IMG/VR virus record: IMGVR_UViG_3300028598_000002 | Location: 1-57,563 of that record | Reading direction: 5' to 3' (one strand) | DNA: 57,563 nucleotides | Origin: a virus | Lineage: Duplodnaviria > Caudoviricetes | Part shown: piece after piece, positions 35,077-40,548 of the stretch | Layout: each line of letters opens with the position of its first letter | How positions within the stretch are numbered: position 1 is the stretch's first letter | The notes under the pieces: model-generated | What the model was told of the DNA's origin: nothing | The model's input: the letters and a program-made list of their open reading frames with translations, nothing else | Databases searched by the model: none | Translations under genes and position numbers: made by a program

Positions 35077-35236
35077 CGGCCTCTCTTTGCTTCTTCAACT
35101 CGCGGACTACGTACTCCGCGGTTGCTTGTCGAACAATCTCACTATACGAGGTCGCTCTCATTTGTGCCAGTACCTTCGTTGCATGAAGCAGTTTGTTGGG
35201 AAGGAATACATTAACTCGGGTCTTGTCGTTAGCCAT
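35069..35236 (-). CDS. Ribbon-helix-helix (CopG-like) DNA-binding protein
   Basis: MANDKTRVNVFLPNKLLHATKVLAQMRATSYSEIVRQATAEYV...* (55 aa); RHH pattern; AAGGAG SD. Not in the ORF track. Confidence 0.65.
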   Translation of the reverse strand: MANDKTRVNVFLPNKLLHATKVLAQMRATSYSEIVRQATAEYVVRELKKQREADV

Positions 35237-35454
35237 TATTTACTCTCCTTTACGTAACACCGGGTGTCCGCCAGATCTTTGGCGATGGTCATGGTGCGTT
35301 TTGTGATTTCGCTCAACGCTTGACGTTGTGGATGGGTGACTTCGTTACCTAGTTTCAGGTCATTGTGCAGAGCCAGTAGCTCGGACCAGACTTCTAGGAG
35401 TTCGTCAGATTTGTAGCCTACGGTGATCTCGGTGTAGCTGTTTTTGTTGGTCAT
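35236..35454 (-). CDS. Hypothetical protein, first gene of the leftward arm
   Basis: 72 aa downstream of a predicted promoter; preceded by GAGACTGAC. Confidence 0.5.
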   Translation of the reverse strand: MTNKNSYTEITVGYKSDELLEVWSELLALHNDLKLGNEVTHPQRQALSEITKRTMTIAKDLADTRCYVKESK

Positions 35455-35485
35455 GTCAGTCTCGTTTTCGTTGAAAGATAGGGTG

Positions 35486-35513
35486 AGTATAAGCGATGTA
35501 AAAATGATGTCAA
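35486..35513 (-). promoter_or_regulatory. Putative sigma70 promoter, leftward
   Basis: TTGACA (35513-35508), 16-nt spacer, TATACT (35491-35486), with AT-rich sequence upstream. Confidence 0.65.
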
Positions 35514-35785
35514 GCTAAAATTTTCAAAAAGTTATGTGGCGTGGGGATAAACCCCCCCACCCCCCGCGGGGGCTTGGTCCACTTGGGGTGGGTCAAGAAG
35601 GTGTATTATTCCCTTCATAGGGTGTCAGGACTGCTGCAACAGACTTGCTCTCCAGTGCTCCTGACTAGGTGAATGAAGTTCACCGAACCACGCCACCAAA
35701 TGGTGGCCTGTACGTCCCAGCTCCGGATAAGCATAGGAAACCGGCAAGCTCAGGTTGATGTCCCCCGAATCGGTAACGGTTTGGA

Positions 35786-35838
35786 CTCGTCATCACGTAA
35801 ATACGTGGTCTGATGATGGCCCAGTAGGCCGAAACGAG
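35786..35838 (+). ncRNA. Type III hammerhead ribozyme
   Basis: Stem III 5' CTCGT, C35791 (GUC site), stem I ATCACGT-AAAT-ACGTGGT, core CTGATGA (35810-35816), one extra U, stem II GGCC-CAGTA-GGCC, GAAA (35831-35834), stem III 3' (A)CGAG. Confidence 0.85.
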
Positions 35839-35847
35839 GTACTTCTT

Positions 35848-36099
35848 ATGAAGAAGTCACAACGCCGCAAGGTCAGCAAGCTGACTCGCATGGCTAAACG
35901 TGAACGTCTCAACGACTCAACACCACGTAAGGTTAAGAGACTTAACCTTGAGGTTGCGAAGTTGACAGTAATCAAGACCGAACTCAACCGCTTGTGTATT
36001 GAGCCCCGCGGTAATGACGCCATCAAGGCGTATGGTGATTTCGGCATTGTTTTGGCACGTAGAGCAGAACAATTCAACCTTGGCAAAGCCAAGTATTGA
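35848..36099 (+). CDS. Small basic hypothetical protein, first rightward gene
   Basis: ATG at 35848 with GAGGT SD at 35836-35840 (MKKSQRRKVSK...). Confidence 0.55.
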   Translation: MKKSQRRKVSKLTRMAKRERLNDSTPRKVKRLNLEVAKLTVIKTELNRLCIEPRGNDAIKAYGDFGIVLARRAEQFNLGKAKY

Positions 36100-36398
36100 G
36101 TATGAAACACACCAGAGGTGTGTATTTATAGCGAGATTATGAGTTAATGGCACGCCATTAAGAATGGTTGTGTCATTAACTAACTCGTTAGTTAACAAGG
36201 GTTTATATGTTAATGTACTTATTACCAAGTACAATAACATATGAGTCGTGCGTAGAAAACACGGGACCCATCGTGTGTGTTTTGGATCAGGGGTCATATA
36301 TTTTGGGACGCCATTAATGGTATTAACCATTAACATACATACACGCAACCACCGAACCACATCACCAATTGAGTATGTAATACTCAGGAGTAATCACC

Positions 36399-36590
36399 AT
36401 GAAACCAGCACTCAACGTAGTTGAAACTGTGTACGAGCTTGAGACTATCGAGCACCAGCGCCTGACCACTGCCAAGCAAGTGGACAAGTTCTTTTCCAAA
36501 GAACAAATCGAAACTGCCGATGCCCTGATCAGCAAAGCTGAATGGGAACTTGGTACCGAACTCACCCTGACTCCTATGGAGTCTGAGTAG
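36399..36590 (+). CDS. Hypothetical protein
   Basis: 63 aa, AGGAG SD, followed by hairpin AGATGTCC-TACG-GGGCATCT. Confidence 0.55.
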   Translation: MKPALNVVETVYELETIEHQRLTTAKQVDKFFSKEQIETADALISKAEWELGTELTLTPMESE

Positions 36591-37093: not shown

Positions 37094-38065
37094 ATGACCG
37101 ACAAGCAACCGAGTCCCGTTAACGGGATCGAAACAAAAGCGGCATTGAATGACAGCTTAGCTGCCAATTACATGCTGATTACCCTGAAGATTAGCCGATG
37201 GTCTGCATCCAAGCGCGATAAGCACTTGGGTAACCAAGTGGCTGAGCAAAAGGGCGCAGTACTGGACAGCGTAGCTGCCACTAAAAAGATTATGACCGGT
37301 GCCGACACTGAGCTGTCAGCAGTAAATACTGCGCTCAATTCCATCCGGACATATCTGTACGACAACTCACTCCCTTGGAGTGGTGAAGTCAGCGGTGACA
37401 AGAAGGGTCCTCGTATTGTCCCTACTCGTAAGAGTATGGACCTGATCAAGGAACTCGGCGTCATGCAGAAGGATTTCGAGAAGGCGATGCGAGCTTTCAA
37501 GAACGTGTATTCTGCCCGTGTTGACACAGCCATGGCGAACCTCGGCAAACTTGCCGACCGTAGCCTGTATCCAAGCGAACACGAGATCGAAGATCTGTTC
37601 AGCGTTAGTATCGACATGGTACCAGTACCGGCTGTCTCTGGATTTGGTGGTATGAATATACCATCCGAACTGGCTCTTGCCCTTGGCAAGCGCATGGAGA
37701 AGCAACAATCTGTGATTGTCGAGAACGCTACCGCGGCTCTTCAAGAACGTGTTCTTGAGACTGTCACCAACCTGAGCGATCAGCTGCATAAGGCAGCGGA
37801 TGGTGAAGGCACACGACTCTTCGAGTCGCTGAGTGGCAACCTGAAACCTTTGGTTGACCTGATCGATGCAGCATCCTTGTCTAAAGACAAGCGTCTTGCT
37901 GGTATCAAGAAGGAATTAGCAGAGCTAAGCAAGGTGGACATCAAGAAGCTTAAGAAAGCTTCACCGGAAGCCAAGCGTAGCGTAGCTAAGAAGGCCGACA
38001 CCGTGATCAAGAAAGTCACGGCGAAGGTTGACGTTGACTCGTTGACAGAAGAGGTACTCTTTTAG
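37094..38065 (+). CDS. Helical phage protein (DUF3150-like) upstream of the AAA/vWA pair
   Basis: 323 aa; 'L.ISRWSA.K.D', 'SLPW', 'LYPS' motifs; family assignment from memory only. Confidence 0.5.
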   Translation: MTDKQPSPVNGIETKAALNDSLAANYMLITLKISRWSASKRDKHLGNQVAEQKGAVLDSVAATKKIMTGADTELSAVNTALNSIRTYLYDNSLPWSGEVSGDKKGPRIVPTRKSMDLIKELGVMQKDFEKAMRAFKNVYSARVDTAMANLGKLADRSLYPSEHEIEDLFSVSIDMVPVPAVSGFGGMNIPSELALALGKRMEKQQSVIVENATAALQERVLETVTNLSDQLHKAADGEGTRLFESLSGNLKPLVDLIDAASLSKDKRLAGIKKELAELSKVDIKKLKKASPEAKRSVAKKADTVIKKVTAKVDVDSLTEEVLF

Positions 38066-38177
38066 AGTACCACCCAACCACAAATCCAAGGCTGGAAAAC
38101 CAGCCTTTAACCCCGCCTTGCAGTGGTGTGCAAAACAGCGCACTGCTGCTCGGCTCAACCCTAAAGGGACCGACAAA

Positions 38178-39236
38178 ATGAAACTTTCAGACCTAGATGA
38201 CAACCAGATGACCAAGCAATTCAACGCAGGGCATGCGATGTGTTTGCGTGGTAGCCCCGGCATAGCCAAGACTGCGGTAGTTGAGCAGTATTGCGAACGC
38301 CATGACCTCGGATGTATCGTCATGAACTTGACAGCATCTGACCCGATGGATGCTTTGGGATTTTTAATCCCAGTCAAGACCGATGATGGTCCTGTTGCCC
38401 ATTACTCTAAGCCTAATTGGCTTACTCGTATCGAGGAGTCAGGCGAAGAGCAAGGAATTTTATTCCTTGATGAGCTGCTCAGTGCTGAGCACATCACCGT
38501 CAAGGCATTTGCACCACTGATGTCCGAAGGACGTATCGGTGAATGGTTACTGCCCGAAGGATGGGTAGTCTGGGCCTCTGGTAACAGAGTCCAAGACAAA
38601 TCCGGTGCCATGAAAATGCTGGTCCATGCTGGTAACAGAATGAACGTCATAGACGTTGAACCTGACCTCGAAGCATGGTGTACTTGGGCTAACGATGCCG
38701 GTGTACATCCGATGTACATAGCATATGCCAATGCTCGCCCCGGTGAAGTGTTTGCCGGTGAACCGCCGAAGGACCCCGATGAGCAAAGGCTTACGCCTCG
38801 TTCACTGGTGTTCGCTCAGGACTACCACACTGGTGGTCAAGTCGAAGACGACTTGGCACTTGATCTGGACCCCGTGACACAAGCTATGGTTGCTGGGTAT
38901 ATTGGTCAAGCTTCAACCGCGGATCTGTTCGGATTCTTCCGAACTGTTGACGAGTTGCCGACGATTCAAGAGATCATCGACAGCCCTGATACAGCGAAGC
39001 TGCCCGACTCGATGCGGATGGATGCTCAATATGCAGCTGTCCAGCTGTGTATTCACCATGCCGATAGTGAAACTATCGACCCCATCTTCCAGTATGTAAC
39101 GAGGCTGAACAAGGAACTGCAAGCCTCCGCTGCGAAGCAGCTTATCGACAAGACCAAGGGCTCATTGCTTAACAGCAAGGCACTCGGCCAGTGGATGAGT
39201 GAAAACCCAGCGTTGATTACATCAACCTTTGCATAA
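38178..39236 (+). CDS. MoxR-like AAA+ ATPase
   Basis: Walker A GSPGIAKT, Walker B ILFLDE, sensor 'ASGNR', 'NR' finger, 'TPRS'; ATG at 38178. Confidence 0.8.
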   Translation: MKLSDLDDNQMTKQFNAGHAMCLRGSPGIAKTAVVEQYCERHDLGCIVMNLTASDPMDALGFLIPVKTDDGPVAHYSKPNWLTRIEESGEEQGILFLDELLSAEHITVKAFAPLMSEGRIGEWLLPEGWVVWASGNRVQDKSGAMKMLVHAGNRMNVIDVEPDLEAWCTWANDAGVHPMYIAYANARPGEVFAGEPPKDPDEQRLTPRSLVFAQDYHTGGQVEDDLALDLDPVTQAMVAGYIGQASTADLFGFFRTVDELPTIQEIIDSPDTAKLPDSMRMDAQYAAVQLCIHHADSETIDPIFQYVTRLNKELQASAAKQLIDKTKGSLLNSKALGQWMSENPALITSTFA

Positions 39237-39276
39237 ACCCCAGCGCCAAGGATGGCGCACATTACAGGAGACCGAC

Positions 39277-40548
39277 ATGAAGTACTCACCTGAATTGACT
39301 GAATGTTTGAGCAACCTAGTTGCTCAGCAACCTTTCTTCGCCACCTATTTGTATAACAATATGGAACTCGGCGAAAACCCCAGCATTTCGACAGCCCGTA
39401 CCAATGGTACTCGTATCGAAGTCAACCCTGAATGGTTTGGTAGCAAACCAATACAGCAACGAGTGTTCATCATGGCTCACGAGATCATGCATGGCATACT
39501 CGATCATATGGGACGCGATGCCCTGTACATCAAGCGAGGCTTTGGCCCTGACTTGCTGCCATTCAACCCTGAGACCAGCAACGAAGCTCAGGACTACGTC
39601 ATCAATGCCATGCTGAAGGAAGCACGTATTGGTGAGATGCCGCCCTCTGGGCTATGGGACCCGAGCATCAAAGGCGATGCATTATCCGATGAGGTATACG
39701 TACAACTCAACGGACAGAAGCAGGACCCCGATGCCAAGGACAAATCACCCGATGCCGATGGCAACGATAAAGGTGATGGTCAAGGACAGGCGCAAGGCCA
39801 AGGTCAACCTGACCAAGGTCAGAAGTCTGGTGATGACAACTCACCACCAAGTCACGGTAGTGATAAGGAAGGTGAGGGTTTTGATGAGCACGTAGCAGCT
39901 GGCGAAGCCAAGCCTGAGCAAGAGCAAAAGACCGCTATGGCTCAAGCGATGCAAGCTGCCGAAGCTATGGGCTCAATGCCTGAGTCACTCAAGCGAGTGA
40001 TCGGTGGATTGATCGACCCCGAAGTATCATGGGAAGAGCAATTCCGTAACTCTGTTACGGCTCGACAAGGGCAAGATACCCAGACATGGAGACGCCCGAA
40101 TCGTCGCCGCATTGCAGTAGCACCACACATCTACACCCCGGGCAAGACAGGACACCAGATCGGTGGACTGGTACTTGCTGTGGACGTGTCAGGATCACTG
40201 AACGAAGTCATGCTGACCAAGTTACTTAGCGAAGCTAAGGGGCTGCTGCAAGAAGTCAAGGCCGAATGGGTCAAGGTTATCTGCTGGAATACTGAGCATC
40301 AAGGTACCTTTGACATCGATGATCCAGAGGAACTGGATACCCTCGAAATAGATGGGGGTGGTGGTACTAGGCTCGAATCAATGGCACGGTACCTCGACGA
40401 CGAGGACATACTGCCTGAGCAGATAGTCTGGTTCACTGATGGAATCACTAGGTATAGTGATACCAACCCATTCAGCTGTGATGTTACGTGGTTACTCACA
40501 ACTGACCGCAGGGTACCGTCTTACGGTACCATCATCCACATGAAATAG
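39277..40548 (+). CDS. HExxH metallopeptidase + vWA domain protein (DUF2201-like)
   Basis: AHEIMH, 'N.A.DY.IN', G/Q/D-rich linker, MIDAS DVSGS, GGGGT, FTDG. Confidence 0.8.
   Translation: MKYSPELTECLSNLVAQQPFFATYLYNNMELGENPSISTARTNGTRIEVNPEWFGSKPIQQRVFIMAHEIMHGILDHMGRDALYIKRGFGPDLLPFNPETSNEAQDYVINAMLKEARIGEMPPSGLWDPSIKGDALSDEVYVQLNGQKQDPDAKDKSPDADGNDKGDGQGQAQGQGQPDQGQKSGDDNSPPSHGSDKEGEGFDEHVAAGEAKPEQEQKTAMAQAMQAAEAMGSMPESLKRVIGGLIDPEVSWEEQFRNSVTARQGQDTQTWRRPNRRRIAVAPHIYTPGKTGHQIGGLVLAVDVSGSLNEVMLTKLLSEAKGLLQEVKAEWVKVICWNTEHQGTFDIDDPEELDTLEIDGGGGTRLESMARYLDDEDILPEQIVWFTDGITRYSDTNPFSCDVTWLLTTDRRVPSYGTIIHMK

Follow-up and report, generated by a model that had tools for sequence, protein, structure and literature searches.

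Results

Locus and anatomy of the hammerhead

The stretch of DNA analyzed here, hereafter called the window, comprises all 57,563 nucleotides of the viral record IMGVR_UViG_3300028598_000002 (Duplodnaviria; Caudoviricetes), which represents a nearly complete virus (96% by the record's own estimate). Genes for the terminase, a portal or adaptor protein, and a tail fibre protein occupy the left arm, on the minus strand, and the right arm, on the plus strand, encodes a DUF3150-like protein, an AAA_5 ATPase, a DUF2201/VWA protein, a DNA polymerase, an exonuclease, a helicase, and a primase-helicase. The two arms diverge from a 393-nt gap, and it is within this gap, 336 nt from the leftward gene start, that a hammerhead ribozyme motif is located. 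Searches with the first rightward open reading frame (ORF) gave no PHROG or Pfam family and no atlas match at ≥0.9. A promoter-like sequence is present on the leftward side of the gap (Table 1); a consensus scan of 35200–36200 returned no rightward sigma-70-like promoter. Also within the divergent intergenic region, at 35551–35595, is a tract that is first C rich and then G rich (runs of 7 and 6 C, followed by GCGGGGG and GGGGTGGG) and in which several hairpins are possible.

Inspection of the sequence revealed a complete type III hammerhead on the plus strand at 35786–35838, with helix III as the open helix and 9 nt between its last base and the ATG at 35848. The original prediction had described a complete type III element with one extra U after A9, and every core position and stem that such an element requires is indeed present; its coordinates for the hammerhead, the ribosome-binding site, and the ATG all agree with ours base for base. 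Stems I, II, and III have 7, 4, and 5 bp, respectively, and the core-flanking pairs A35792-U35809 and G35818-C35830 are in place. Stem-loops I and II, 18 and 13 nt long, are plain hairpins. Stem I can be read either as 7 bp closed by the loop AAAU or as 6 bp closed by the hexaloop UAAAUA, and in the second reading loop I fits the motif U-N-Y-N published for loop 1 of the hammerhead loop-loop tertiary contact, for which the loop 2 motif is R-N-A (PMC2632901). Loop II (CAGUA) agrees with R-N-A at the 3' A and has a C as its 5' base. Just beyond the ribosome-binding site, the start codon sits in a small perfect hairpin (Table 1), an inverted repeat that is lost in the closest relative through changes at 35842, 35843, and 35845 and an insertion.

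Table 1. Features of the divergent gap and the first rightward gene, in window coordinates
Feature	Position	Strand	Basis or remark
Leftward promoter-like sequence, TTGACA-16-TATACT	35486–35513	−	11/12 to the sigma-70 consensus; faces the structural arm
Upstream block, which cleavage would remove	35602–35785 (184 nt)	+	Near-invariant in the closest relative
Stem III, 5' strand CUCGU	35786–35790	+	Pairs with 35834–35838; U35790 is U16.1; full-length model alignments
Cleavage triplet GUC	35789–35791	+	Sequence, agrees with N-U-H; intact in the relative
C17, predicted cleavage C35791/A35792	35791	+	Sequence; GUC is the same in the relative
Stem-loop I, AUCACGU-AAAU-ACGUGGU	35792–35809	+	Sequence and descriptor; compensating changes in the relative
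Core CUGAUGA (C3–A9)	35810–35816	+	Agrees with C3 U4 G5 A6 N7 G8 A9
Single extra U between A9 and stem II	35817	+	Treated as an insertion in the RF00008 alignment
Stem-loop II, GGCC-CAGUA-GGCC	35818–35830	+	Sequence; G35819>C with C35829>G in the relative
Core GAAA (G12 A13 A14 and A15.1)	35831–35834	+	Required bases present; A35834 pairs with U35790
Stem III, 3' strand ACGAG	35834–35838	+	T35787>G is matched by a C here in the relative
Ribosome-binding site GAGGU	35836–35840	+	First 3 bases lie in stem III; 7 nt before ATG 35848
Perfect 7-bp hairpin ACUUCUU/AAGAAGU	35841–35857	+	Sequence and fold; AUG start codon is the 3-nt loop
First rightward ORF, 83 aa, basic N-terminus	35848–36099	+	Kept in the relative, with many third-position changes

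Conservation of the hammerhead in the closest relative

The closest relative, about 88% alike (<90% to 95%), is represented by two DNA contigs from two studies, X9 and X12, which cover 35602–35977. No RNA data set was listed as containing 35300–36500. A blastn search against a phage collection gave no match, and a search for relatives with the 83-aa protein of the first gene and with the ATPase found none. Between 35786 and 35847 the relative differs from the window by 15 substitutions and 5 indels, all of which leave GUC, CUGAUGA, U35817, and GAAA untouched. Each of the three stems contains one double compensating change. In stem I, C35796>A together with G35805>T replaces a C-G pair with A-U, and a further change, U35793>C, converts U-G to C-G. 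In stem II, G35819>C and C35829>G turn a G-C pair into C-G. In stem III, T35787>G is accompanied by a C on the opposite strand, aligned as an insertion behind 35836, so that the pair is kept; the outermost pair of this stem is altered and lost, leaving a stem III of 4 bp. These compensating changes are the strongest single piece of evidence for selection on the hammerhead structure.

Chance expectation, Rfam searches, and folding

The motif was evaluated with a loose type III descriptor that required minimum stem lengths of 4, 3, and 4 bp and CUGANGA, allowed 0 or 1 extra base, and was applied to both strands. The hammerhead itself was the one match in the 57.5-kb window, compared with 2 matches in 300 shuffled windows, an expectation of about 0.007 per window. 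The original prediction had also proposed an Rfam search with hammerhead models. A scan focused on 69 bases aligned the element to Hammerhead_3 (RF00008) over the full length of the model (positions 1–54 of 54; 26.1 bits; E value, 3.2e-4), and RF00008 was the only credible family in that scan, but the score lies far below the gathering score of 48.5. A scan of the whole window at gathering thresholds gave no match, and neither did a scan of the 401 bases at 35600–36000 with E values up to 10. As a control, nine loci with comparable phage elements were searched in the same manner; none of these elements was reported (0/9), and the only hits were to type II hammerheads, three in number, which are unrelated and lie at other positions in three of the loci. 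The silence of the larger Rfam scans is uninformative because the control failed to detect any of the comparable elements. The blank result had initially been a candidate piece of counterevidence, which was dropped in light of this control and the focused RF00008 match. Type II hammerheads recognized by Rfam at 41 to 46 bits share a phage locus with type III elements, at a distance of 750 to 1,100 nt, in L056 (5298–5366), L005 (4701–4768), and L039 (3231–3294), indicating that these phages carry several hammerhead types.

A covariance model built from 25 other type III elements scored the window element at 52.3 bits (E value, ~1e-11; next match, 9.9), a value that is largely circular since 21 fixed bases taken from the window had served to collect the training set, whose stems had moreover been filtered beforehand with the descriptor. 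Single-sequence folding does not return the hammerhead. The nearest-neighbour model instead favours, by 3.2 kcal/mol (−18.1 versus −14.9), an alternative in which the region of the cleavage site pairs with UGAUGA, and the stem III duplex is weak, at −4.5 kcal/mol. A gap of at least 3.2 kcal/mol toward a non-hammerhead fold was likewise found in 9 of the 25 listed family members, and the predicted alternative was discounted because these members behave in the same way. Judged from its sequence and that of its relative, the element at 35786–35838 is confirmed as a genuine type III hammerhead, which is predicted to cleave itself.

A wider class of related hammerheads

At least 111 viral loci, together with 25 loci in bacterial genomes from several phyla, contain the pattern formed by the core, the extra U, a GGCC stem II, and GAAAC; by our estimate, chance would give about 0.005 matches. 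A classifier assigned the 115 listed matches, the window included, to type I (77), type III (30), or neither (8), and the type III calls correspond to 27 distinct elements besides the window among the matches listed. For the same pattern without the extra U, the matches listed comprise 74 type I, 53 type III, and 4 unassigned elements, with 42 distinct type III elements. The 28 matches in bacterial genome loci are divided into 12 of type III, 10 of type I, and 6 of neither. Together, the 27 elements with the extra U and the 42 without it form a comparison set of 69 other distinct type III elements among the matches listed.

Two of the 27 extra-U elements (L008 and L056) were excluded before alignment, their 5' ends having been misplaced by MAFFT. 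In the alignment of the remaining 25 listed members, 97.3% of 375 cells pair, versus 67.9% in shuffles, and 106 cells are changed on both sides, versus 31.2 in shuffles; these values refer to rows prefiltered for pairing (minima of 4 and 3 pairs) in which stem II and the core are fixed by the pattern. Changes on both sides were seen at six of six stem I pairs and three of five stem III pairs.

The type I matches, some 150 among those listed (77 plus 74), have an open stem I and a long, closed stem III. Many of them are near-identical copies spread across many viral contigs (L002 to L229). Tandem arrangements of two or three hammerheads, a few hundred bases apart, occur in L054, L073, L156, and L232; the three copies in L054 are spaced by about 360 nt, and L232, a Martelella genome locus, also has three.

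Placement ahead of gene starts

Placement was scored by asking whether an ORF of 45 aa or longer had its start codon −2 to 46 nt from the last base of stem III. Such a start was found for 26 of the 27 listed extra-U elements, the sole exception being L021, whose locus ends after 75 nt, and for 39 of the 42 listed elements without the extra U. Overall, 65 of 69 listed type III elements are followed by a gene start in this range, compared with 2,979 of 10,400 random positions in the same loci (28.6%). The main mode of the distance from stem III to the start codon is about 18 to 26 nt.

In L013, L039, and L108, and partly in L038, the hammerhead precedes the same module as in the window, at 25 to 33% protein identity. 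In the window this module spans 37094–40548 and encodes the DUF3150-like protein, the AAA_5 (MoxR-like) ATPase, and the DUF2201 metallopeptidase-like/VWA protein. The hammerhead of L013 lies at a divergent junction, as in the window, whereas those of L039, L085, and L097 lie behind a codirectional gene. Because the upstream contexts differ in this way, the constant feature of these elements is their downstream side rather than their upstream side.

Position of the ribosome-binding site relative to stem III

According to the original prediction, stem III sequesters the ribosome-binding site of the first rightward gene. Within the window this holds in part, in that G35836, A35837, and G35838 of GAGGU are paired in stem III, but the overlap is not general. 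In the relative, bases are inserted after stem III and 35840–35843 are altered, with the result that a ribosome-binding site, GGAGG, lies beyond the stem. Among the 69 other listed type III elements, for which start codons were picked by ribosome-site spacing, 5 (L085, L104, L129, L177, and L226) share the overlap of site and stem III strand that is seen in the window, and 44 have the site downstream of stem III, at a gap of 1 to 33 nt. In another 5 (L024, L035, L067, L075, and L178) the body of the ribozyme contains the site, and stem III contains or adjoins the start codon. A 4-mer resembling a ribosome-binding site was absent in 11, and no start was found in 4. Rfam scans gave no riboswitch family, and no sensor or riboswitch domain was seen in the element. 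Any unmasking would be constitutive rather than switched, since the two closed stems, I and II, are simple hairpins too short to leave a place for a sensor. Gating of the ribosome-binding site may occur locally but is not the function that is conserved.

The ten elements with an overlapping or internal site vary among themselves. Stem III extends to 10 bp in L226 and 8 bp in L085, where its 3' strand holds the whole ribosome-binding site and the ATG follows 2 to 3 nt later; the resulting helices between site and anti-site are much stronger than that of the window. In L024, L035, L067, L075, and L178, an AGGAGG resembling a ribosome-binding site is found either in loop II or on the 3' side of stem II, with the start codon within stem III or immediately behind it. 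A ribosome would have to unfold the ribozyme in order to start at such a site.

A near-invariant block upstream of the hammerhead

In the relative, the block that precedes the hammerhead (Table 1) differs at 2 listed positions (4 at most), versus about 34 changes in the adjacent hammerhead and ORF. Both contigs of the relative stop exactly at 35602, a position at which a conserved RNA or regulatory module may begin or a mosaic boundary may lie. Several hairpins can be drawn in the block, including one of 8 bp that is capped by GUAA and abuts stem III, and the fold z-score of the block is −1.22. Rfam scans identified no family in it, it contains no tRNA or tmRNA and no telling repeats, and a 30-mer taken from it has no other exact copy in viral or JGI metagenome contigs. 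The block could be regulatory DNA or a recombination module.

Discussion

We propose that the hammerhead is active and, with somewhat better than even confidence, that it acts as a constitutive processing site that defines the 5' end of the mRNA of the rightward replication operon. From the observed motif, its conservation through compensating changes, and its placement, we infer that the site is transcribed, that it is cleaved, and that cleavage affects the stability or translation of the message. The rightward transcript would fold during synthesis and cut itself between C35791 and A35792, releasing an upstream leader of at least ~180 nt, the block at 35602–35785 included, that would end in a 2',3'-cyclic phosphate and, being held by 5 bp alone, would fall off. 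The operon mRNA would then start with a 5'-OH at A35792 and carry a fixed 56-nt leader made up of hairpin I, hairpin II, and the ribosome-binding site, up to the ATG at 35848. In this manner, the translation start region of the first gene would be uncoupled from upstream sequence and stable hairpins would cap the message, and the freeing of G35836–G35838 would be a local side effect. Whether a 5'-OH stabilizes or destabilizes a message depends on the RNases of the host. The original prediction had offered two functions, gating of the ribosome-binding site and the setting of a defined 5'-OH terminus on the rightward transcript, and the second is the best reading of the data presented here. Such trimming of the mRNA is the most likely role, and the arrangement is one that is common in phages and no special translation switch.

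The element resembles several known systems and departs from each of them. De la Pena and Flores reportedly described, in 2001, a natural active viroid hammerhead that tolerates an extra base between A9 and helix II; in the present case the extra base is a U and is common to at least 111 viral DNA loci. With the type III family RF00008 the window element shares the core (CUGAUGA, GAAA, and GUC), an open helix III, and closed hairpins I and II, but it has the extra U before stem II, has a helix II of just 4 bp, and is encoded by a DNA phage rather than a circular RNA. A parallel in placement comes from the HF1/HF2 halovirus hammerhead, which Perreault 2011 (PMC3088659) describes as likewise phage encoded and directly upstream of the first ORF of an early/replication transcript, 13 nt before a helicase start, with a mapped 5' end no more than 3 nt from the cleavage site. 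That report attributes to the halovirus element core insertions near C3 and a need for high salt, whereas the core of the window element follows the consensus except for the one added U, and most of the hammerheads that it highlights are of type II with a pseudoknot, in contrast to the type III element of the window. It also puts forward, for prophage hammerheads, a role in cutting long transcripts into gene-length mRNAs. The synthetic insulator RiboJ, also a type III hammerhead, is placed between promoter and ribosome-binding site and cuts on its own 5' side, which removes the upstream context and leaves its body in place as a structured leader; in E. coli it increased protein levels 2- to 10-fold and transcript levels about 2-fold (Clifton et al. 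2018, PMC6206723). Compared at the level of sequence, the geometry of the window would be RiboJ-like if the rightward transcript starts upstream of the element. RiboJ, however, is engineered with an added hairpin that is described as keeping the ribosome-binding site free, whereas in the window the site abuts and partly enters stem III. Reviews regard the role of prokaryotic hammerheads as open (PMC6155905, PMC6765202, and PMC13725137).

Other explanations of the locus must be considered. Cleavage could license translation, with stem III hiding the ribosome-binding site until its 5-nt partner strand leaves after the cut. The pairing of three of the five GAGGU bases points in this direction, as do a stem III weak enough (−4.5 kcal/mol) for the 5' product to leave, the five other listed elements that have the site in stem III, and the five more that have it in the ribozyme body. 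We nevertheless consider this mechanism unlikely, since the site has moved out of stem III in the relative, it lies 1 to 33 nt beyond stem III in 44 of 69 listed members, and the step would always be on, the element having no ligand-sensing or other regulatory domain. In addition, the computed accessibility of 35836–35840 is alike before and after cleavage, with 35839–35840 paired downstream in both states, although this argument is weak in that the folding model does not contain the hammerhead fold. In engineered bacterial aptazymes, a helix of the ribozyme includes the ribosome-binding site, which cleavage frees, and these devices carry a ligand-binding aptamer and an extended stem I. The window element, in contrast, has no sensor domain and only three paired ribosome-site bases. 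Alternatively, the main job of the ribozyme may be to form the 3' end, a 2',3'-cyclic phosphate at C35791, of an upstream noncoding RNA derived from 35602–35785. The near-invariance of this block beside a diverged hammerhead and ORF, the termination of both relative contigs at 35602, and the hairpins of the block would all suit such an RNA, and the 5'-end-defining model leaves that near-invariance unexplained. Yet the fold z-score is only −1.22, no Rfam family was recognized, the block 30-mer is without another copy in viral and JGI metagenome contigs, other family members have instead a codirectional gene ending 17 to 100 nt before the ribozyme, and promoter or operator DNA or recent recombination could account equally well for the conservation; the proposal therefore seems to us quite improbable.

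It is also conceivable, albeit very unlikely, that cleavage lowers or times expression, either because loss of the 5' triphosphate leader exposes the message to decay or because the competing fold slows cleavage, so that just some of the transcripts are processed. In favor of this are the 3.2 kcal/mol by which the nearest-neighbour model prefers the competing fold and the idea of regulated cleavage, which Perreault 2011 (PMC3088659) raises for phage hammerheads. An equal or larger energy gap in 9 of 25 listed members argues against it, T35787>G in the relative weakens the alternative pairing, and the tight placement before ribosome-binding sites (65 of 69 listed) fits with the provision of a translatable 5' end. 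Finally, an inactive motif, arisen by chance or decayed, would agree with the subthreshold Rfam score, but it is hard to reconcile with the shuffle expectation of about 0.007 per window, with an intact core and compensating changes in all three stems of the relative, and with a class that is large and context specific, and we regard it as highly improbable.

For the window and the ten listed loci in which the ribosome-binding site lies in stem III or in the ribozyme body (L085, L104, L129, L177, and L226 and L024, L035, L067, L075, and L178), we raise as a speculative and rather doubtful proposal that hammerhead and ribosome-binding site interlock, such that only RNA that has cut itself would load ribosomes and a ribosome that arrived beforehand would block cleavage. 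If true, the interlock would be a natural counterpart of the engineered hammerhead-ribosome-site switches and would give these elements a direct role in licensing translation.

In sum, the window element is an ordinary member of a class of phage hammerheads that curated Rfam thresholds miss, and the class shows a sharp regularity: its type III elements lie about 20 nt ahead of a gene start in 65 of 69 listed cases. Among the placements that are conserved is one in front of a replication operon encoding a MoxR-like ATPase and a VWA protein. This placement suggests a concrete and testable function for them, namely, that of defining and protecting the 5' ends of mRNAs. The natural variants, in which the ribosome-binding site lies outside, abuts, or falls inside the ribozyme, should provide material for studying whether cleavage and translation are coupled.
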